A stretch of 64,000 nt of DNA from a virus (IMGVR_UViG_3300028920_000023); one strand, 5' to 3'; shown: positions 1,723 to 64,000, numbered from the stretch's first letter. Notes: generated by a model not told the origin, from the letters alone. A program made the numbers and translations.

Positions 1723-3213
1723 TTAATCCATAGAAACATTCAACATATAACCACCACGACTAGGGCTCAGGAACCTATTGAAAGACAAACCCTTCCATTT
1801 CAAAGGATCCAAACTGTGAATGCCCAACAAGTAACACACCAAACTACCACCAGCAGAACCACGAGCAGGACCAACCGGCCAATTATGATGATCCGTAGAA
1901 CGTCTAACCAAATCCTGAGTAATTAAGAAATAAGAAGCAAAACCCTTCTCACAAAACCTCTTCAATTCAATCTCAACCTGCTCCCTATACGTCACCTCCC
2001 TGCCATCCATAGGATACTTCTTATCACACTTATCCAAACCACGCTTCTTAAGCTCCCCATAAACAGAAGAGACTAATTTATATTCAGCCTCCTCAGGCGT
2101 ACCTATCGTAGGCAACTTAGGATCTAAACTCGGCTTAAAAGTCTCACACTTTTCAGCAACCTCCAAAGTATTATCACAAGAACTCTCAAATAAACTCCTA
2201 TCAACAAAATCAGAATATAAACCCCTACTAAAAGTAGCCCTCAACTCTGCCCTAGTCTTAAGATACTGCTCACTAGAATTCACATGAAATAACCCAGGAT
2301 CATCATAAGTCATGTCCTGATCTATAGCCATCATCAACTTCTGAAGCATAAAATCACGACGATCCAAATAGTGGCTATCGTTTGATAGTACTGTTTTAAT
2401 ACCCATATTATCCGCAAGAGATGCCAACAATGCAAAAATCTCGGAATCATGCCTTTCCTCATTAAACATAATCCCAGGCATCTGAAGCTCTATATAATAA
2501 TCATCACCAAACACCTCTCTAAATTTCTTAATATAATCTACAGCACCAGTTGTAAATTTTTTAGAATCTAAATTACCTCTTACTAATTCATGACTTACCG
2601 GACCATTCAAACACCCAGACAATATAATCAGCCCCTCACAATGCTTAGCCAACACATCAAACCACACCCTCGGCTTATAGTAGAAACCATTCAGATAAGC
2701 ATGACGATTTATTTTCAAAAGATTCTCATACCCAGTCATATTCTTGCAGATGACTGTCAGATGTCTGTTTCTTCTGAAACGCATCTGTAAATCGGGATCT
2801 TCCTCACCGATATCTTTCATGGTAGCCCCCTGCGATATTAGTTGTTTCCTAAGGGGCTCGTAATCATTATAATAAATCTCACATCCTGAAAGGTATTTTA
2901 TATTATGTTGTTTGGATGCGAAATAAGCATCTGGGACGCTGTTTAGTGTTCCGTGCTCTGTTATGGCTATTGCCGGCCATTTGTTATCTTCGCATTTTTG
3001 GAAGTAGTCTTCTGGGGATGCAACCCCGTCTAGGATGCTGAATAGGGTATGGTTATGGAGGTGGACCATTTCTGTTGGTCCAGGATATAGTTTCTCTGCT
3101 TCTTCTGCTGATAATTCTTGTTCTAGTTCTTGTTCTCGTACTCTAATTTCAGCTTGCGGGGGTTTCTGTTCCGCTTGGGGTTTCTGTTCCGCTTGTGTCT
3201 GCGTCTGTTCCAT
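1723..3213 (-). CDS. dnaE: DNA polymerase III alpha (DnaE-like), N-terminal PHP part
   Basis: VHLHNHTLFSILDG, AITEHG, GCEIY, YYKPR, LSGCLNG, SNDSHY and RGSAGGSLVCYLLGI are PHP/DnaE motifs. The ORF stops at FNRFLSPSR, just before the PDIDIDF motif. Confidence 0.92.
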   Translation of the reverse strand: MEQTQTQAEQKPQAEQKPPQAEIRVREQELEQELSAEEAEKLYPGPTEMVHLHNHTLFSILDGVASPEDYFQKCEDNKWPAIAITEHGTLNSVPDAYFASKQHNIKYLSGCEIYYNDYEPLRKQLISQGATMKDIGEEDPDLQMRFRRNRHLTVICKNMTGYENLLKINRHAYLNGFYYKPRVWFDVLAKHCEGLIILSGCLNGPVSHELVRGNLDSKKFTTGAVDYIKKFREVFGDDYYIELQMPGIMFNEERHDSEIFALLASLADNMGIKTVLSNDSHYLDRRDFMLQKLMMAIDQDMTYDDPGLFHVNSSEQYLKTRAELRATFSRGLYSDFVDRSLFESSCDNTLEVAEKCETFKPSLDPKLPTIGTPEEAEYKLVSSVYGELKKRGLDKCDKKYPMDGREVTYREQVEIELKRFCEKGFASYFLITQDLVRRSTDHHNWPVGPARGSAGGSLVCYLLGIHSLDPLKWKGLSFNRFLSPSRGGYMLNVSMD

Positions 3214-3556
3214 TCGTGTCCGCCTTTTCTGTCTTCATCGTCTCTAATATCATCCGACGCAGAGGCGTAATCATCTTCCTGACCTCATTAAGGCCATTCC
3301 TAGCCCTTCGGCCTGCGGATTTATTATTACCATCAATAGATTTCTGGGCATTTGAGGCAATATCTTGTGCCACGTCAATAAGCTTCTGGAGCTCAGGATC
3401 ATATTCCTCAGTGACCTGTACCACATCCGTATCGACTTCCGCTGGTTTTCCTTCTGACATAGCTTTCTGAGCCTCCACGCAACCTTTGAGATGAAGATTA
3501 AACCCAGCGGAACTCGTACAGAGTTTACCGCATACGCATTGATGGAATTTGTTCAT
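3149..3556 (-). CDS. Hc1/histone H1-like small DNA-binding protein with an N-terminal Cys/His cluster
   Basis: GNNKSAGRRARNGLNEVRKMITPLRRMI resembles the GNKAAGTRARK motif of bacterial Hc1-like proteins. The start at 3556 overlaps the upstream stop (ATGA). Confidence 0.55.
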   Translation of the reverse strand: MNKFHQCVCGKLCTSSAGFNLHLKGCVEAQKAMSEGKPAEVDTDVVQVTEEYDPELQKLIDVAQDIASNAQKSIDGNNKSAGRRARNGLNEVRKMITPLRRMILETMKTEKADTNGTDADTSGTETPSGTETPAS

Positions 3557-6069
3557 ACCGACTCGGGATCTGTAGTTGAACAGGCATCGGGAGGCAAACA
3601 CATCCTATAAGTAACCGAGATAACACCAGTAATCCTACCAGGTCTTCTAACAGAATCCCAAAGACCAGCAAGAACGACCGCATCAACAGGCTCATCTCCA
3701 CTCTGATCATCACCTAAAATATTGATATAATGATCAAGCTTGATGTACTGTGTCAATGGATCAATATTATTGTCGTCATCCCGACCACCCGGATTATTAG
3801 CCTCCAGCCCATTGGTTACCGAAGTCACAAAATCCTGCACGTCACGAGTTATATACCTACCATCCCTAACAACCTGAGATCTAGTCAACAGATTACCGGC
3901 ATCATCATACTTATACTCATCATACAACGGAGGCGGATTCGCAGTACGATCACCATCCGGATCCACATGTGCACCATCAGGCCAAACATTACCCTTCGTG
4001 GAGACCCTAGCTATAATCCTCTTATGCTGAGAATCCAAAATCTCATAAGCATCACCAACAGCAGGACGATCAGTACCATCACCAAGCGTAGGCCAAGGAC
4101 GACGCAAAATCAAAGTATCAGAAGTATTATCACGAATAGTCCTACTAACACCAGCGAAAGCACCATCAACCATCGTAACCCGATAACCATTATTAGCAGG
4201 AAAATCCCCACCATCATCATTATCGCGTTCACGCCACTGACCAGCAACCCAAGACTGACCAGAATCAATCAAATTACGCCTAGTAGAAGCAACCTGAGTA
4301 ACAGTCCCAGAACCATCCGCAGGAGGACCATCCGGAGTAGTAGAAGACAAAGCCGTCAAACTATCACTCAAATTATTATGAATCGTATGACCATCACCAC
4401 GAAGATTATCCCTCTTATTCTCATAAGGTTCCCGATCACCAGGCCACTCCTGACGAGTAGACCTATTAGACACCGGATCACCCTGACGACGCTCAAGCGT
4501 AACCAAATCGAAAGTATAATAATTCCTCAAAGAATACTCAGCATTCGAAGAATTACGCGCAACACGAACAGCCGCAGTCAAATCCAACAAATACATATTC
4601 ACAGCCTGCCTATGAACCTTCACAGGCGTCAAATACTCATAATCCTTATTAATATTACCACGGAACTGCTGAGTATGACTCCTGCCAATAATAGGAACAG
4701 TCAACTGGAAAATATCAACACTCACCCACGCCCCAGTCTCCAGCGGGTCTAAAGAACGAACAACATCCGGATCATAATACCACTGAATATTCCTAGAAGT
4801 ATCAAACCAAACCCTACAATCCGGAACAGCCGCATTAGAATCCCCAGAAGTAGCCGGAATCTCAGGACAATCACGCTGAACACAAATAGCAGACTCACCA
4901 CCAACCGAAACCGGCAACCACCCAGTATTACCACCATCATTAAACACCTTCACCCACAAAGTATCATTCTCAGTGGGCTCATCAGAACCAACCGCATCAC
5001 CACTACTCCGACCATAAATCGCACCAATCGGAGCATAAACATAACCCTCAGGACTACCAGCACCAAACTTTACATTGTCGCCAGTAACGAATCCAGAAAT
5101 ATTAGCAGTAGCATTTCCAGGAGCATTAGCAGCATTACTAACACTCCCAGCGATAATATGATTCGTAGCAACCACATCACCATAGACATCCAAACCCTCT
5201 TTAGAAAAAATGCCACGAACACCAGGACACTCACCAGCCTCGCCCGTATAAAACCTAATCGTCCCATCAGAAACCGTATCACCATCAACCCGCAACTCAA
5301 TAGCACAAGAACCATGCGCAGTAGGAGAATCTATACCACACTCAGCAGTCTCCTGAAACTGCACATTCTGACTAATAAACGAATGCTCAGAATCATCACC
5401 AGAAAAACCAACCATAGACTGAAAACGACCAAAAGTCTGACCCGACTGAACACGATACTCACGATTGCCACCAACGCTATCTAAATAAACATCCCCACCA
5501 GAAACCCACAACCTATTACCAAGACCACTAGAAACCTCACCAGTACCAATAAGAACATTACCCTCAGAATCACCACGCATCAACTCAGAAATAACACCAT
5601 CAGAATCCGTAGTAGCAAACTGAATATAACCAGACTTATCACCATCAACATCATTCTCCTTACGACCAGCAATAGTAGCAAAAGCAAAAGCCGAATAATC
5701 AGACTCAGCAGAACGACCACTAAACCTCAACTGAGGGCCAACATCCTTAGCAGGACAATTACAACTAATAAGACGAATATTACCAGCCAACTCACCAGAA
5801 TCAACAACATCAGATTCTAACTGGAAACCAGCACTACTACGATAAATCTTCTGGCCAAAAATCTCAAACTGATCTGAGTAAGTATCTACAAAGACTTTCT
5901 CAGTAGAACCCGTACCACCCCTGGAAATACCCAGAGGCTGGTCAGAATCCGCAATGGCATTAGTCAGAGCTAACTGATAAGCCTGTTCAGCCTTATCCGC
6001 AACCTCTTGGATAAGATCCTCATAACGCCTAATCCCATCACGACTATTCTCGCCCATAATCACCCCCAT
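3553..6069 (-). CDS. large (838 aa) putative virion/tail-fibre-related protein
   Basis: Long ORF rich in Gly/Ser/Asp/Thr and beta-type segments, with a WFDTSRNIQWYY segment of the kind seen in fibre proteins. The function is inferred. Confidence 0.5.
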   Translation of the reverse strand: MGVIMGENSRDGIRRYEDLIQEVADKAEQAYQLALTNAIADSDQPLGISRGGTGSTEKVFVDTYSDQFEIFGQKIYRSSAGFQLESDVVDSGELAGNIRLISCNCPAKDVGPQLRFSGRSAESDYSAFAFATIAGRKENDVDGDKSGYIQFATTDSDGVISELMRGDSEGNVLIGTGEVSSGLGNRLWVSGGDVYLDSVGGNREYRVQSGQTFGRFQSMVGFSGDDSEHSFISQNVQFQETAECGIDSPTAHGSCAIELRVDGDTVSDGTIRFYTGEAGECPGVRGIFSKEGLDVYGDVVATNHIIAGSVSNAANAPGNATANISGFVTGDNVKFGAGSPEGYVYAPIGAIYGRSSGDAVGSDEPTENDTLWVKVFNDGGNTGWLPVSVGGESAICVQRDCPEIPATSGDSNAAVPDCRVWFDTSRNIQWYYDPDVVRSLDPLETGAWVSVDIFQLTVPIIGRSHTQQFRGNINKDYEYLTPVKVHRQAVNMYLLDLTAAVRVARNSSNAEYSLRNYYTFDLVTLERRQGDPVSNRSTRQEWPGDREPYENKRDNLRGDGHTIHNNLSDSLTALSSTTPDGPPADGSGTVTQVASTRRNLIDSGQSWVAGQWRERDNDDGGDFPANNGYRVTMVDGAFAGVSRTIRDNTSDTLILRRPWPTLGDGTDRPAVGDAYEILDSQHKRIIARVSTKGNVWPDGAHVDPDGDRTANPPPLYDEYKYDDAGNLLTRSQVVRDGRYITRDVQDFVTSVTNGLEANNPGGRDDDNNIDPLTQYIKLDHYINILGDDQSGDEPVDAVVLAGLWDSVRRPGRITGVISVTYRMCLPPDACSTTDPESV

Positions 6070-35772: not shown

Positions 35773-37140
35773 ATGCCATCTGGAAAAAAGATTAATTGGT
35801 CTGCATATGATGATTTAATACGTATAGAATTACCAAAAACCACAATCGCGTCATTCCGCAATAAATTCTTAAAACATATCTCAGCAAAGGCTATAGGGGC
35901 CAGAGCCAGAAAATTAGGTATAAAACCAGCTAAAAAGTCAAAGCTGGACGAAAGACATAAGAAGACAATATCAGAAAGCTTGATGAAAGAAACACCAGAA
36001 TTAATAAACAAAATAAAAGAATTACGAGACAGGAATTCAACAAAGGAAATCGCCAAGATACTGGGATGTAGCATATCTCTGGTAAACCGAATAATCAAAA
36101 GACAGAACATTAAATTAAGTAAGGAAGGAAAAATAAGAGTCAGAACACAAATTAGTAGTAAACAAAAAGGCAAGATTCCATGGAATAAAGGCATGGAAAT
36201 GCCCCTAGAGTTCAGAATAAAGGTGGCCATATCAAGACAAAAACAATCTGGAAGACTCTCCAAAATACAACAATCTTTTTACAGAACACTAGATGAATTA
36301 GGGGTTAATTATTTAGAAGAAACTAATGAGAAATGTAGATTTGGGCCGTGGACTTTCGATTGCAGAATAATAGAACCGGGGTATGATATTCTGGTCGAGG
36401 TCCAGGGTGGGTATATCCATTCCTTACCGAAGAACATTCATAAGGATGAAGCTAAAGCGACCTATATGAGGAGATATTTCCCAGACATACCGATAAAATA
36501 CATTTGGGAACATGAGTTTGGCGCGGCCAATAGGATCAAGATGAAGGTCCTTCAATGGATAGGCAGGAGAAATATAGAGCAAGTTGATTTTAATTTCAGG
36601 GATGTTACAATTTCCTATATTGAGACTAGTGAAGCGCGAGAATTTGTATCTGCTTTTCATTATTTGGAGAAAATGGTCGGAAAGACATGCATTGGGGCGA
36701 AATTAGGGGACAAAATTATTGCGGTGTCAGTATGGGGGGCACCTACGAGATATGAGACTGCATCTAGATTAAATGTCAAATTAAACAGATGTTTGGAGTT
36801 ACGTAGGTTTGTGGTTCATGATGCATATCATAAGAAGAATTTTGCATCATGGTTTTTGGCTAGGTCAATACCATTGTTACAAGGTCCAGAAGTATTGGTT
36901 AGCTTTGCAGATGTTGGCTTTGGCCATCATGGTACGATTTATAAAGCGAACAATTGGGAGTATGATGGAATGACGGAACCATCATATTTTTATATTGACC
37001 AGGATGGGTATGTGATATTAAAGAAGACATTATATAATCAGGCACGTAAGATGCATATGACTGAATCGGATTTTGCTGAGACATATAATTACAGGAAGGT
37101 ACCAACACCAGGAAAGAAACGGTTCATAAAGAGGTTATAA
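35773..37140 (+). CDS. fusion: DNA-binding region, PD-(D/E)XK/Vsr-like endonuclease and Mom-like GNAT-fold DNA-modification domain
   Basis: IPWNKG (NUMOD3-like); FDCRI...LVEVQGGYIH...KDEAK...IWEHE (Vsr/DUF559-like); EAREFVSAFHYL...LELRRF...SWFLARS...LVSFAD...GHHGTIYKANNW (Mom-like). AAGGAG RBS before 35773. Confidence 0.75.
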   Translation: MPSGKKINWSAYDDLIRIELPKTTIASFRNKFLKHISAKAIGARARKLGIKPAKKSKLDERHKKTISESLMKETPELINKIKELRDRNSTKEIAKILGCSISLVNRIIKRQNIKLSKEGKIRVRTQISSKQKGKIPWNKGMEMPLEFRIKVAISRQKQSGRLSKIQQSFYRTLDELGVNYLEETNEKCRFGPWTFDCRIIEPGYDILVEVQGGYIHSLPKNIHKDEAKATYMRRYFPDIPIKYIWEHEFGAANRIKMKVLQWIGRRNIEQVDFNFRDVTISYIETSEAREFVSAFHYLEKMVGKTCIGAKLGDKIIAVSVWGAPTRYETASRLNVKLNRCLELRRFVVHDAYHKKNFASWFLARSIPLLQGPEVLVSFADVGFGHHGTIYKANNWEYDGMTEPSYFYIDQDGYVILKKTLYNQARKMHMTESDFAETYNYRKVPTPGKKRFIKRL

Positions 37141-37206
37141 GTTTTTGGTGTTCGGTATATTTTGGGCGAGGGTTTTTCCTCGCCCAGTCTGTACAGGAGA
37201 TAGAAC

Positions 37207-37539
37207 ATGAGGCGATTTGTATTTGGTTTGGTTTGTTTGTTGTGTCTGTTTGTTTTTGTCGGTTGTAATGATGCTACTGTTGTTTCAAATAATCTGTCGA
37301 AAGCTGCGGATAATTTTGAGGTTATACGTAGAATTGTGTTCTATAATGGTATAACTGGAGAATATATATTCGTTATTGAGGGTGCCTGTTCGATCGCAGA
37401 CCAGGGCAGTCAGCTGGAGGTCACGGTTAAAACGGGTGAGAATGAGTATAAGAAACACTTTCTTGGACTTTCCGATAACGTAACATATTTTGCTGAACAA
37501 ATTGAACCAAAGAAGACAGATAGTATCATTATAGTGTAA
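37207..37539 (+). CDS. phage lipoprotein
   Basis: Signal with lipobox FVGC; ADNFEVIRRIVFYNGITG...YKKHFLGLSDNVTYF resembles a widespread phage lipoprotein family. Confidence 0.75.
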   Translation: MRRFVFGLVCLLCLFVFVGCNDATVVSNNLSKAADNFEVIRRIVFYNGITGEYIFVIEGACSIADQGSQLEVTVKTGENEYKKHFLGLSDNVTYFAEQIEPKKTDSIIIV

Positions 37540-37592
37540 CATTTAAGCCGTCGGTAATTGTTCCTGATGTTAGCATTAAGTAGGGAAGATTT

Positions 37593-37805
37593 ATGATAAT
37601 TTATGGGGTATTCAAGCGCCATAAATTCGGTTTACGTTTGCAGGATTTATTCCTAAAGCGGGAACATGCAGCGAGTTTCATTAATTTGCAGTGTAATTCG
37701 AAGGGCGTTAGATGCCGATGGAGCGAGATTAAGGGTGGTGAATGGGAGATACTTCCGGTACGTGTGAATACCCGTGATATCACGAAATCAATCCAAATGC
37801 TCTAA
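37593..37805 (+). CDS. small hypothetical protein (70 aa)
   Basis: ORF track; weak support. Confidence 0.4.
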   Translation: MIIYGVFKRHKFGLRLQDLFLKREHAASFINLQCNSKGVRCRWSEIKGGEWEILPVRVNTRDITKSIQML

Positions 37806-37843
37806 CTACTTTTGTTTTTTCTGTTATCTGGTATGTATCGTAT

Positions 37844-37997
37844 GTGGTGGTTCTTTGACAATCTAGTCCTGTGGGTTTTCAGGCTACACGGTCGCCTAGA
37901 GATTATCCAGAAGTGATAATCGAAGATGAACCATGGGGTTCCGCCCAGCACGCATCACCCACAGGAATGCTTATCCCGCGTGTGTACGGGCGCGTGG
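37844..37997 (+). repeat. 154-bp block (structured leader plus first repeat), copy 1
   Basis: Identical to 38464-38617 (offset 620 bp). Confidence 0.92.
37867..37966 (+). ncRNA. candidate tracrRNA/omegaRNA-like scaffold, copy 1
   Basis: A 10-bp closing stem TCCTGTGGGT/ACCCACAGGA encloses hairpins AGGC/GCCT, GATTATC/GATAATC and GAACC/GGTTC, plus a possible anti-repeat CGCCCAGCACGC. Confidence 0.65.
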
Positions 37998-38407
37998 CCA
38001 GGGGAATTGGCCGTCCGCACTAGTTTAGAACCTATCCCGCGTGTGTACGGGCGCGTGGTCGGACAATCATCGGCCTGATATATGTTCCGCGTGCGTACGG
38101 GCGCGTGGCGTGAGCGCAACCGTCCAGAACCACAGTGTTTGGTCCGCGTGCGTTGGGCGCGTGGAAAGTCCCGAATGATGCCCACCCGTTCCTCCGGTTT
38201 GGTCCGCGTGCGTATGGGCGCGTGGGAAAATATGCATCAGAAAGGCGTTTCTCGTCAGTTTGGTCCGCGTGCGTACGGGCGCGTGGCAGAGCCAAACAAC
38301 GGGACACAGAAGAATGCCATCTGATCTGCGTGTGTACGGGCGCGTGGACAGGACAAAAAAGAGCCACGGAAGACAGCAGTTTGGTCCGCGTGCATACGGG
38401 CGTGTGG
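37969..38407 (+). CRISPR. CRISPR-like array A: 8 repeats, 7 spacers (32, 21, 28, 32, 32, 32, 31 nt)
   Basis: Consensus repeat GTTTGGTCCGCGTG(T/C)GTACGGGCGCGTGG (29 nt), with a conserved 3' 22-nt hairpin core and unique spacers. Confidence 0.9.
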
Positions 38408-38463
38408 TATGGTGGATTTATCGAGTCACTTTCATCTTTTGGATTGTCTGGTATTCCGTAGTC

Positions 38464-38617
38464 GTGGTGGTTCTTTGACAATCTAGTCCTGTGGGTTTTC
38501 AGGCTACACGGTCGCCTAGAGATTATCCAGAAGTGATAATCGAAGATGAACCATGGGGTTCCGCCCAGCACGCATCACCCACAGGAATGCTTATCCCGCG
38601 TGTGTACGGGCGCGTGG
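38464..38617 (+). repeat. 154-bp block (structured leader plus first repeat), copy 2
   Basis: Identical to 37844-37997. Confidence 0.92.
38487..38586 (+). ncRNA. candidate tracrRNA/omegaRNA-like scaffold, copy 2
   Basis: Same stems as copy 1. Confidence 0.65.
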
Positions 38618-39318
38618 GACAAAGACGAAAAGTGAATAGGTATTCTCACACCTATCCCGCGTGTGTACGGGCGCGTGGCTTGGCTCCTGTTACTGAGAGC
38701 CAAACTAAGACTCGGGCCTCACCGTTTGGTCCGCGTGTGTACGGGCGCGTGGAACCCTGGACCCGTACAGTACTTCAGCGCGTTGTTTGGTCCGCGTGTG
38801 TACGGGCGCGTGGGAATGCTGAGAGACAGAGGAAATGGCACTGGAGTTTGGTCCGCGTGTGTACGGGCGCGTGGAGGTCTTGCTGATCTGTAATGGGAAG
38901 CCATCTGTTTGGTCCGCGTGTGTACGGGCGCGTGGGAGATCCCGGTCGCGGGTGGTCCGGCAGGGTAATGTTTGGTCCGCGTGTATACGGGCGCGTGGGG
39001 TCGATGGTTGTCCTGCTTCGTTTTAGCTCAGTTTGGTCCGCGTGTATACGGGCGCGTGGCTGGCAGACCTCATCTGGTCTTCCTGCAAAGCGTTTGGTCC
39101 GCGTGCGTACGGGCGCGTGGTGAGGCCAGGGGTATTATCCAAGCATTCCAAAGGGTCCGCGTGCGTACGGGCGCGTGGGTAGACGAGGCCGCTAAGGATC
39201 TGCCCCGCGTGGAGGCCGCGATCGAACGTAATGACCCAGGCAACTGTCCAGCGTGTGTACGGGCGCGTGGCTCCTTCAAGAACCCATTGGTCTGTCCCGC
39301 GTGCGTACGGGCGCGTGG
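38589..39318 (+). CRISPR. CRISPR-like array B: 12 full repeats plus 1 collapsed repeat; spacers mostly 32 nt (range about 19-45)
   Basis: Same repeat; period about 61 bp; degenerates toward the 3' end. Confidence 0.92.
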
Positions 39319-39337
39319 TATGGTGGATTTATCGATC

Positions 39338-39418
39338 GCGGGGACATGGCATGGCCGCTGGGACCGGGAAAGCGCGCCCGGCTCTCGAAGTGAGGTTCGA
39401 TTCCTCCGCCCTGCACCA
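39338..39418 (+). tRNA. tRNA-like element with a non-canonical anticodon arm
   Basis: Acceptor-like stem GCGGGGA/GCCCTGC plus A-CCA end; T-loop GAGG-TTCGATT-CCTC. The central hairpin CCGGG/CCCGG has an 8-nt loop that does not fit the anticodon consensus. Confidence 0.4.
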
Positions 39419-39513
39419 ATTTAGAGCGACTTCACCCACCAAAAATCTCGGACGTTGATGCACAAGTTTCACATATAACACACAACGATACAAAATATCA
39501 AAGGAGAACAACC

Positions 39514-41211
39514 ATGGCCAAGAAGAAAGACACACACGCACACACAGAACATTACTACGTCAGCATCAAAGACCCCACAAAGGAACAGACATATAACAAC
39601 AAAGGAGAACCAGAAAAAGACACAGAACTATACGAGCAAGTAATGACAGATATTCGGATGTACCGCAAAACAACACAAAAACTAGGCGCATTCTATCTAG
39701 TGCACCTCTTCGCCACAGCCCAAACAGACCTAGATAACCTCGCAGAACAAATCGACAAAAATGAAGCACTCGACGTAATGCGAGAATCACTAAGATCCAA
39801 CGTCAAACGACTACTAGGCAAACAAGACAGACTCGACGAAGCCCTCCAAGAAGCAGAAGTAGCATTCACAGAAGCCTGTATCGACCTAGAAACAGCAGGA
39901 GAAGTAAAACCAACACAAAAACAGAAACTAGAAGCAGCTGTACGCAAAGCCGAGAAACAATACGAACAAATCAGAAAGAAACACCCAACAACCGCCATAC
40001 AAGACGCAGAAGAACAAGTCCAAAAAGCCAAAGCAACCTACGCCAAAACCAAAACCAAAGACGACCTCGAAGCGCTCAGGAACGCAGAAACACGCCTCAG
40101 AGGAATCAAGAAAAGAACCGAAGAAGAAGCACGCAGAATCGAAGCACTACGCCAAAATGGCAAGATATTGACAGTCAAAGAAACAGAAAGAGCCTACATC
40201 CACGGCTACCTGATGCCAGAATGGAAGCCGTTCATAGCCGAATCCATCACAAGCACAACACGCGGCATCCTACACAGAATCATGGGCTCCAAAGACCCAG
40301 AAATAACAAACCTGCCCAGAGAATACCTAGCAGCCAACGGCGTAAGAGGCACCCCAGAATTCAAAGAAATCGGAATAGAAATCAAGAACACCGAATATAG
40401 ACCCACAGAAGACGGATTTGGAATATTAACAGAAATACGCAAAGGACAACCAATAGAACTAAGATTCTATAGAAAGAGAAGAAAAGGCAAGAAAATGAAA
40501 ATGGACCCACACAAATTCTTTATACTCAAGAAACTAGGATTCATACCAAACCAAAACGGAGAAAGAAAAGCCGACTGGAAACCAGGAACATGTTTCCTCA
40601 CAACAGACCGTCAAGGAAAACGCCTAGCAATAAGACTAACCTACACCAGACCAAACAAACAAAGAAACCTAAACCCAGACCGCACAATGCGAGTAGACTT
40701 CCACGAAGACCTATATAACAAAGACAAATACATGTGCATGCACATGGAAAGCGGCTTCCTACCAACAGACAACGTCAGCTACCTCGCATCACTAGACCAA
40801 GTCAAAAACACAACATGGTCCTCCAAAACCATGTACGAAGACATGCGAGGACTAAACCAACAGAAACTCGAAATAGAACAATTATGGAGAAACAAAAGCA
40901 CTAACAGGCACGTAAGAGAAAGATTATCCAAAAGGAAACAGAACCTACAAAAGAGACAAACCGGAACCCAAAGACGATGGCGAGGAACAATAAACCAAAC
41001 CATCCGCAAACAAGCAGAAAGATGGAACTGTGGCAAAATCATAATGGGGCACCTACCAGACAAATTCTATGGCTTCCCATGGCCACAAAGTAACTTCAAG
41101 CTAGCCCTAACATCCAAACTCAAAGAATACGGAATACAAATCACCTGGATAGACGATGTCAAGGTAGGAAAAACCAAAACAAAACGCAAAAAAGAACCCG
41201 TCTGTCTCTAA
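39514..41211 (+). CDS. TnpB/Cas12-like (type V-like) RNA-guided effector, predicted nuclease-dead (565 aa)
   Basis: WED-like segments (PEFKEIGIEIKN; GTCFLTTDRQGKRLAIRLTY); RuvC-I-like LNPDRTMRVDF; bridge-helix-like segment; RuvC-II-like QAERWNCGKIIMGHL; WPQSNFKLALTSKLKEYGIQITWI; adjacent to the arrays; AAGGAG RBS. Confidence 0.75.
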   Translation: MAKKKDTHAHTEHYYVSIKDPTKEQTYNNKGEPEKDTELYEQVMTDIRMYRKTTQKLGAFYLVHLFATAQTDLDNLAEQIDKNEALDVMRESLRSNVKRLLGKQDRLDEALQEAEVAFTEACIDLETAGEVKPTQKQKLEAAVRKAEKQYEQIRKKHPTTAIQDAEEQVQKAKATYAKTKTKDDLEALRNAETRLRGIKKRTEEEARRIEALRQNGKILTVKETERAYIHGYLMPEWKPFIAESITSTTRGILHRIMGSKDPEITNLPREYLAANGVRGTPEFKEIGIEIKNTEYRPTEDGFGILTEIRKGQPIELRFYRKRRKGKKMKMDPHKFFILKKLGFIPNQNGERKADWKPGTCFLTTDRQGKRLAIRLTYTRPNKQRNLNPDRTMRVDFHEDLYNKDKYMCMHMESGFLPTDNVSYLASLDQVKNTTWSSKTMYEDMRGLNQQKLEIEQLWRNKSTNRHVRERLSKRKQNLQKRQTGTQRRWRGTINQTIRKQAERWNCGKIIMGHLPDKFYGFPWPQSNFKLALTSKLKEYGIQITWIDDVKVGKTKTKRKKEPVCL

Positions 41212-48930: not shown

Positions 48931-49434
48931 GTGATGGAAACATATGCTTTTCCCCTACGAACAGGGGACATCCGGATACAACCGAACCCCGTGCTGTTGT
49001 CTCTCCTGAAAGAAGAAAAACAAGAAACAGAAGAAGACCCGATCACAGAAGAAGACCCGATCACAGAAGAAGACCCGATCACAGAAGAAGACCCGATCAC
49101 AGAAGAAGACCCGATCACAGAAGAAGACCCGATCACAGAAGAAGGACCCCTGGAGAACATAGGAGAAGGCACGGGATGTATACGCTTCCTATGTAACAAA
49201 GAAATATCAATGAAGATAACAGGAAACGGCCTCGACGGAGATGACAGAATAGTCTGGGACAAACGCCTCCTGGAGACCGTCAGAGAAGCCAGAGAGAAAT
49301 TCTACGAATTATTGAAACTAGGGTACGCAGCATTCTCCGTCAAGAAAAACGGCAGAAAATCAAACCGCAGGATGCACAAATTCGACCCGCGAGTAGAAGA
49401 AATCATCATGGTCGCCCCACAGGCAGCAGGATAA
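48931..49434 (+). CDS. hypothetical protein with an (EEDPIT)6 repeat
   Basis: ORF track; the repeat is in frame. Confidence 0.7.
   Translation: MMETYAFPLRTGDIRIQPNPVLLSLLKEEKQETEEDPITEEDPITEEDPITEEDPITEEDPITEEDPITEEGPLENIGEGTGCIRFLCNKEISMKITGNGLDGDDRIVWDKRLLETVREAREKFYELLKLGYAAFSVKKNGRKSNRRMHKFDPRVEEIIMVAPQAAG
49027..49134 (+). repeat. tandem repeat, 6 x 18 bp (ACAGAAGAAGACCCGATC)
   Basis: Six perfect copies followed by a partial copy. Confidence 0.95.

Positions 49435-55627: not shown

Positions 55628-64000
<8,373 letters not shown>

Follow-up and report, generated by a model that had tools for sequence, protein, structure and literature searches.

Cas12f and dCas12f proteins require a scaffold RNA of about 100-200 nt. 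The solved Cas12f and dCas12f complexes all carry a long sgRNA or gRNA (structure titles; PMC13472631), and Hoffmann et al. (Nature 2026, PMC13472631) describe dCas12f loci that sit beside CRISPR arrays and have a non-coding RNA with covariation encoded ahead of the array. For inactivated Cas12f proteins a scenario has been put forward in which the array is minimized, a half repeat becomes fused to the tracrRNA, and the resulting omegaRNA is duplicated into arrays (Altae-Tran et al., PNAS 2023, PMC10691335). Viruses also carry mini-arrays devoid of cas genes, in which the repeats are identical to those of the host and the host effector is used (PMC11656645). Here we describe a phage locus in which two short CRISPR arrays, each headed by the same structured element, precede a gene for a Cas12f-like protein. 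On balance, and judging from sequence, we favor the view that this 125-nt element is the non-coding guide-RNA scaffold of a phage-encoded, nuclease-dead Cas12f-like protein, which is the best explanation of its genomic context, fold statistics, sequence constraint, comparative topology and a third, partial copy.

The window, that is, the whole stretch of 64,000 nt that was analyzed, is a portion of a giant phage from marine sediment (IMGVR_UViG_3300028920_000023). The record carrying the protein, P0001, is a contig of 354,787 bp, and the runs that bear this DNA are marine-sediment metagenomes. The effector gene is located within a conserved phage replication/repair block (Table 1), starting 195 nt past array 2, and its neighbors encode a DNA polymerase III alpha-like protein, SbcCD/Mre11-like proteins, a helicase, an RDF-like protein, a homing-endonuclease/Mom fusion and a giant collagen-like protein; the RDF-like and homing-endonuclease/Mom fusion genes are the ones found just upstream of the leader/array units. 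Neither cas1/cas2 nor a transposase family was detected among the neighboring ORFs scanned, and nothing in them points to the IS200/IS605 transposon end that marks a TnpB omegaRNA. An Rfam scan of 36000-41000 (E up to 1) gave no match, ARAGORN called no tRNA or tmRNA over the window, and a blastn search of the whole region against INPHARED phages returned the RDF-like gene as the sole match, with the spacers unmatched. Conserved structured non-coding elements at the locus amount to the leader and the 84-nt tRNA-like piece only; the latter may mark a site of RNase P/Z processing or be what is left of an att site, and the identical 17 nt after both arrays are either a duplicated trailer or a fixed guide. 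Outside the arrays the phage has a GC content of about 41% (41.4%). Positions 1-56000 of the window show a strong strand bias, with AT skew reaching +0.6 and negative GC skew across long plus-strand gene blocks. At the far end, a minus-strand ORF of collagen repeats, longer than 2,270 aa (57175-64000; Pfam Collagen, E 5e-296), accounts for a jump in GC to 62%, and a BclA-C-like collagen protein lies beside it at 55628-57178.

Table 1. Features of the array locus and its immediate surroundings, in coordinates of the window.
Feature	Position	Strand	Remarks
Leader (candidate scaffold), copy 1, 125 nt	37844..37968	+	Closing stem and three hairpins
Array 1	37969..38407	+	Eight 29-nt repeats, several mutated; spacers mostly 32 nt, two shortened
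17-nt sequence after last repeat of array 1 (trailer or fixed guide slot)	38408..38424	+	
Upstream flank of unit 2, diverged	38425..38463	+	About 69% identity over 35 columns to 37807-37842
Leader (candidate scaffold), copy 2	38464..38588	+	Identical to copy 1
Array 2	38589..39318	+	Twelve repeats plus one collapsed repeat inside 39179-39240
17-nt trailer, second copy	39319..39335	+	
tRNA-like element, 84 nt	39336..39419	+	T-arm-like GGTTCGATTCC, acceptor-like stem, encoded CCA
P0001, predicted nuclease-dead Cas12f/TnpB-like protein, 565 aa	39514..41211	+	Presumed user of scaffold and guides
ORF, family unassigned, 264 aa	41238..42032	+	Directly downstream of P0001

The stretches 37844-37997 and 38464-38617 are identical at 154 of 154 positions and comprise the 125-nt leader together with the first 29-nt repeat (R1). 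This exact repeat had been proposed in a sequence-only reading of the window, along with differing spacers and the details of a fold, and the computation bears it out throughout: a repeat search gives 100% over 154 nt; every spacer differs between array 1 and array 2; 37867-37876 is the perfect reverse complement of 37957-37966, forming a 10-bp closing stem that stops 2 nt before repeat 1 (start 37969); and inside it AGGC (37881-84) pairs with GCCT (37894-97), GATTATC (37901-07) with GATAATC (37915-21), and GAACC (37928-32) with GGTTC (37937-41). That the structure is unusual was also claimed, and it does exceed expectation, since the 107 nt of leader from 37862 to 37968 fold at -40.5 kcal/mol (z -3.76), a value equaled by 0 of 200 shuffles. 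Leader plus R1 gives z -3.45, again with none of 200 shuffles as good, and the full 154 nt, with the unpaired 5' end included, reach a z of only -1.5. In the predicted fold the closing stem surrounds the three hairpins, and the hairpin of the repeat follows 2 nt on. The leader stems being Watson-Crick throughout, the minus strand folds just as well (z -3.40), and the leader alone therefore gives no strand information.

The most conventional account would make the element an ordinary CRISPR leader that holds an array promoter and/or spacer-integration signals, its identity between copies stemming from recent duplication or gene conversion and its stems being incidental or regulatory. We regard this as unlikely, if a serious contender. 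Its position is that of a canonical leader, ending at 37968 directly upstream of R1 (37969) on the transcribed strand, and a TTGACA is present at 37855-60; paralogous CRISPR leaders within one genome are, moreover, often highly conserved. Against this stand the absence of any called sigma-70-like promoter inside the leader (a consensus that may not be the host's), the lack of cas1/cas2 among the ORFs scanned nearby, and a composition and structure (GC 50% vs 41% for the phage, fold z -3.8) unlike those of typical leaders, which are AT-rich, weakly structured and promoter-bearing. The comparison of leader and repeat speaks for an ordinary leader, in that no significant anti-repeat was found: the best leader-repeat duplex (-24 kcal/mol) is no better than those of shuffled leaders (389/1000, p 0.39), and an anti-repeat scan of 8 kb on both strands produced no outlier. 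A leader-repeat match of 5+6 bp at 37942-53 is indistinguishable from chance, given that the repeat, being GC-rich and self-complementary, can pair with a wide range of sequences.

The arrays themselves bear on the same question. In both arrays R1 and R2 have a variant 5' part in common, which is what the gain of a single spacer per array at the leader end would produce, and the spacing of 29-nt repeats and 32-nt spacers is the geometry of type I-E; both points agree with an ordinary leader. The invariant portion of the repeat is its 3' part beside the spacer, the 5' eight bases being variable, and the collapsed repeat of array 2 retains this 3' part. On the plus strand the repeat forms a hairpin of 8 bp with three G-U pairs (-11.8 kcal/mol, 93% of the ensemble); on the minus strand it is essentially unfolded (-4.6 kcal/mol). 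It follows from this plus-only hairpin, from the 3' conservation and from the same-strand arrays of relatives that the element is a leader and not a trailer. The converse, with the arrays read on the minus strand and the element as their trailer, was rejected on the same grounds of hairpin asymmetry, repeat conservation pattern and orientation in the relatives. Tracr-independent Cas12 enzymes have repeats with a guide-adjacent hairpin of their own, and the hairpin seen here might likewise allow the crRNA to act without any scaffold. The 18 spacers are all different and regularly sized, with a mean GC of 52.8% vs 41.4% for the phage, and a comparison with the rest of the window gave only chance matches of at most 11 nt. 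In this comparison, 10-nt matches to spacer 6 at 18-nt steps revealed an 18-nt tandem repeat at 49027-49143. In run X2 the depths of the two arrays differ (70 vs 40), a hint that the arrays are heterogeneous within the population.

The sequence-only reading held that the whole unit had been duplicated, unless the second copy were an assembly artifact; an independent contig and bridging unitigs show the tandem copies to be real. A JGI contig from a separate assembly (L002) carries both units letter-for-letter, and a 526-nt unitig spans array 1 into leader 2 in three runs. MEGAHIT k141 contigs break or start exactly within the 154-nt repeat, and the depth of the leader unitig is about 1.6-2.8x that of its flanks. 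The duplicated unit is longer than 154 nt, since about 35 nt upstream can be aligned at 69% with gaps and the 17-nt trailer is common to both arrays, so that flank, leader, array and trailer were duplicated in tandem. Complete identity over leader and R1 (154/154), despite a flank that has drifted to 69% and the replacement of all spacers, therefore requires selection or gene conversion; being identical, the two leader copies carry no covariation information.

A third, partial copy of the leader lies outside the window and is seen at 30-nt loose contig ends in runs X2 and X3. Past the base equivalent to 37949 / 38569 it runs on through TT and the 3' half of the repeat (13 nt) into a new spacer, and upstream of the base equivalent to 37879 it gives way to a different sequence with its own 7-bp hairpin. 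The three hairpins are kept, the closing stem is lost, and CGCCC is brought beside GGGCG. The leaders of the window depart from the placement of a TnpB omegaRNA in that they stand upstream of the gene and have a 29-nt repeat between leader and spacer 1; the third copy comes close to an omegaRNA, its core abutting the half repeat. By its sequence, this union of core and half repeat matches the tracr-half-repeat fusion that the published scenario (PMC10691335) places after the loss of RuvC-III from Cas12f, and it counts against an ordinary leader. The third copy probably belongs to the same phage genome, though it may instead stem from a co-occurring relative.

Although P0001 has no Pfam, NCBIfam or PHROG match, an exhaustive phmmer search yielded 67 relatives, and a profile built from P0001 and 53 homologues recovered Cas12f (E 2e-23), the dCas12f-gRNA structure 9n9c (E 7e-15) and TnpB (3e-11) from the PDB. 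A single-sequence AlphaFold model was unusable (pLDDT 41), and an alignment-based model was taken instead (pLDDT 83.3, pTM 0.70). The top Foldseek matches of this model are all Cas12f, dCas12f and TnpB chains, with E down to 3e-12, and a structure search of the ESM Atlas led to TnpB/Cas12f clusters. P0001 is closest to Cas12f1-type effectors, and is about 10-15% identical to the solved Cas12f and dCas12f proteins; a 190-aa helical N-terminal extension precedes a core of about 370 aa. The column of the RuvC-I Asp varies freely across 54 homologues in the HMMER alignment, the position of the RuvC-II Glu is a Gly in P0001, and proteins of this family stop short of the zinc ribbon and RuvC-III, about 20 residues past the last strand matched to Cas12f. 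Alignment and model together indicate that P0001 is a nuclease-dead, C-terminally truncated Cas12f-like protein. Since all solved members of this fold use a long structured guide RNA, the locus should encode one. The protein also bears on the earlier suggestion that the locus represents an intermediate between a TnpB omegaRNA and a CRISPR array, which probably has the direction wrong: with its closest affinity to Cas12f1 and its C-terminal truncation, P0001 fits the published scenario of nuclease loss in Cas12f (PMC10691335), and a derived state on the way from Cas12f to dCas12f, with re-fusion of scaffold and repeat, is more likely than a primitive omegaRNA-to-array intermediate.

Relatives of P0001 for which DNA was examined are 25-32% identical to it and mostly viral. 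A search for related loci in IMG/VR with P0001, P0003, P0004 and the full alignment found nothing, and protein P0002 has no homologue in the relatives' flanks. Array and gene share a strand in all the relatives examined, and there the leader comes after the gene, as opposed to before it in this phage. In L006 there are three mini-arrays with a 29-nt repeat and a period of 61, each following a leader of about 130 nt, one of which starts at the stop codon of the gene. L011 has the gene, an 80-nt leader and seven repeats (period 61), L015 the gene, a 118-nt leader and eleven repeats (period 61), and L018 the gene, a leader of about 100 nt and then two arrays, first a type I-E-like mini-array and next one with a period of 66; in L017 the array lies 0.9 kb downstream, and in L013 structured units are found on both sides of the gene. 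Leader lengths range overall from 80 to 135 nt, and none of these leaders has sequence similarity to that of this phage. In L006 unit B, L011, L015, L018 and L013 the placement is that of an omegaRNA, at or past the 3' end of the gene. No array was seen in L014 or on the short contigs L007, L008 and L010. P0003, the closest relative (32% identity), is followed, like P0001, by an ORF, here of 245 aa, and a relative 61% identical to P0003 has no comparable array on its 1.9-kb contig (L063). On that contig, copies of a short GCGTG(A/G)G motif spaced 22-30 nt apart flank the gene on either side (50-170 and 1655-1795), and they may be extremely reduced repeat-guide units. The array of L015 is followed by four paralogous pentapeptide-repeat-like genes with 15-nt periodicity (2530-4756).

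The folds of these leaders are more telling than their sequences. L018 and L013 both have a long-range closing stem around three hairpins, the topology of this phage's leader, and the L013 units fold at z -3.2 to -4.1. Between the paralogous copies of L013, hairpin 2 shows two compensatory pairs (C-G to G-C, U-A to C-G), and hairpin 1 has wholly given way to a different sequence, which is itself predicted to form a hairpin. Of the columns in the three paralogous L006 leaders 61% are paired, yet 12 of the 17 variable ones lie outside pairs (Fisher p 0.008). The shared three-hairpin topology and the compensatory changes argue against an ordinary leader. Minimum free energy folds of L006, L011 and L015 also show a leader segment pairing with repeat 1 over 10-15 bp, several G-U pairs among them; compared with shuffles, this anti-repeat duplex reaches p 0.017-0.048 (L006 A/B, L011, L015) and p 0.078 (L006 copy C). 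It is 8-10 kcal/mol better on the plus than on the minus strand because of the G-U pairs, and this pairing therefore makes the leaders of L006, L011 and L015 look like a tracrRNA fused in cis to its array. In L013, the repeated scaffold-like units (8-bp closing stem, three hairpins) at 47-139, 1529-1630 and 1677-1769 flank the gene; they have no classical CRISPR repeats and resemble the omegaRNA arrays of inactivated Cas12f. The proposal of a tracr-like scaffold in this phage is partly supported, by the structure and constraint of the element, the effector beside it and the comparable units of relatives; it gains no support from an anti-repeat, none being statistically detectable in this leader.

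The relation of the arrays to host systems admits a further explanation, namely that arrays and leader form a counter-defense decoy: they would mimic host class 1 repeats, and the dead Cas12f-like protein together with the leader RNA would sequester host crRNAs or Cas proteins, much as RNA anti-CRISPRs or the phage dCas9-tracrRNA pair do. Over its 3' 13 nt the repeat is indeed identical to the core of canonical type I-C repeats (43 loci, diverse bacteria), relatives L011 and L018 have I-E-like repeats, and reviews cover repeat mimics in viruses as well as a phage-borne dCas9 that brings its own tracrRNA (PMC11656645). We nevertheless consider a decoy improbable, as the repeat is without the ATTGAAAC handle of type I-C that effector complexes of this type need, a decoy has no need of 18 different, regularly sized spacers, and no host carrying the repeat was found. 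The repeat pattern has no match in IMG/VR or in the genomes of 185,579 species (GTDB), a result that also tells against an ordinary leader, and in JGI metagenomes it gave a single chance match on an unrelated GC-rich contig; a looser pattern of the repeat core returned ordinary type I-C arrays only, and nothing in IMG/VR. Given the missing handle, the type I-E spacing and a repeat that occurs in no sequenced genome, use by a host Cascade is therefore unlikely. An origin of the repeat in host arrays, or filling of the arrays by a host integrase, is possible, and with a 29/32 geometry resembling type I-E a host Cas1-Cas2 module may serve them.

Least convincing is a role at the level of DNA, with the nested inverted repeats as binding or recombination sites, for instance for cassette exchange or the tandem duplication itself, and no function as RNA: the stems could form a palindrome set, given the equal fold of both strands, the RDF-like and homing-endonuclease/Mom fusion genes lie just upstream, and the unit exists in two copies plus an incomplete third one elsewhere, but the relatives' leaders use G-U pairs that exist only in plus-strand RNA and always lie between the Cas12f-like gene and the array, on the strand of the gene, and we think it very improbable.

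If the leader is a guide-RNA scaffold, as we favor, transcription would run on the plus strand through the leader into the array, from a promoter that is probably located upstream of the leader or at its edge. The leader would fold as a multiloop, with the 10-bp closing stem and three hairpins, and be bound by the protein, and the G-U-rich 8-bp hairpin in the 3' part of the repeat, abutting the spacer, would position the guide. More speculatively, scaffold, R1 and spacer 1 could act together in cis as a natural single guide; repeat-spacer units further along carry no scaffold of their own, and might use this one in trans or after processing. The complex would be expected to bind complementary DNA without cutting, as a repressor, blocker or recruiter, and its targets would probably be higher in GC than the phage. 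After tandem duplication of the whole unit, the scaffold would have been kept identical through selection or gene conversion. As a tentative extension, about which we remain doubtful, this could be a hybrid system in a giant phage, in which a nuclease-dead Cas12f-like protein of class 2 reads arrays of class 1 geometry via a cis scaffold at the head of each array, serving as a multiplexed, re-programmable regulator of host or rival DNA. Type I-E spacing and an I-C-like hairpin would then be combined, perhaps because a host Cas1-Cas2 filled the arrays.

Should the leader prove to be such a scaffold, the locus and its mostly viral relatives would represent a distinct, previously uncharacterized branch of nuclease-dead, RNA-guided Cas12f-like DNA binders that keeps multi-spacer arrays, and would show a scaffold RNA sitting in cis at the array head. 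Several stages of the re-fusion of tracrRNA and repeat, from full arrays through duplicated units to half-repeat fusion, would be present in one genome. It would also add a very compact (core of about 370 aa) and naturally multiplexed DNA-binding system, and raise the question of what a megaphage silences or activates with 18 guides of non-phage base composition.

Among known systems, the locus resembles dCas12f (PMC13472631) in the Cas12f fold with a C-terminal truncation that removes part of RuvC, in the nearby array with a predicted structured RNA just upstream and the guide at the 3' end, and in presumably binding rather than cleaving DNA. It is unlike dCas12f in its giant-phage setting, where neither a sigma-E nor an HTH partner was seen, in a protein without Pfam match and with a long helical N-terminal extension, and in its 29/32-nt array geometry and duplicated scaffold-array unit. 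With the scenario for inactivated Cas12f (PMC10691335) it shares the loss of RuvC-III, short arrays, a scaffold adjoining the first repeat, one copy with its scaffold core set directly against a half repeat, and duplication of whole scaffold units, which is also seen in L013; that scenario concerns bacterial RpoE-linked proteins, whereas here, in a phage, full repeat-spacer arrays persist alongside the scaffold. A scaffold of about 100-150 nt between effector gene and array, in the order 5'-scaffold-repeat-spacer-3', is reminiscent of the tracrRNA or sgRNA of type V-F Cas12f, as is the anti-repeat in the leaders of relatives L006, L011 and L015. This phage differs from type V-F, where the repeat is 36-37 nt and unstructured, by a 29-nt repeat with its own hairpin, by a leader without significant anti-repeat, and by a scaffold that precedes the gene and is joined in cis to the array. 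TldR (Wiegand et al. 2024; bioRxiv 10.1101/2023.11.30.569447) is likewise phage-borne, with a RuvC-defective, C-terminally truncated TnpB fold and an adjacent structured guide RNA; unlike this locus it has one fixed guide and no CRISPR array, and it derives from TnpB rather than being Cas12f-like. The virus-borne mini-arrays (PMC11656645) offer a parallel in viral arrays without Cas1/2 whose repeats resemble host class 1 repeats, from which the present one differs by a repeat in no sequenced genome, lacking the I-C handle and accompanied by a class 2-like protein of its own. Systems of this kind are already described for bacteria (PMC13472631, PMC10691335), and what is new is the phage family, the class 1-like arrays and the duplicated cis scaffold.
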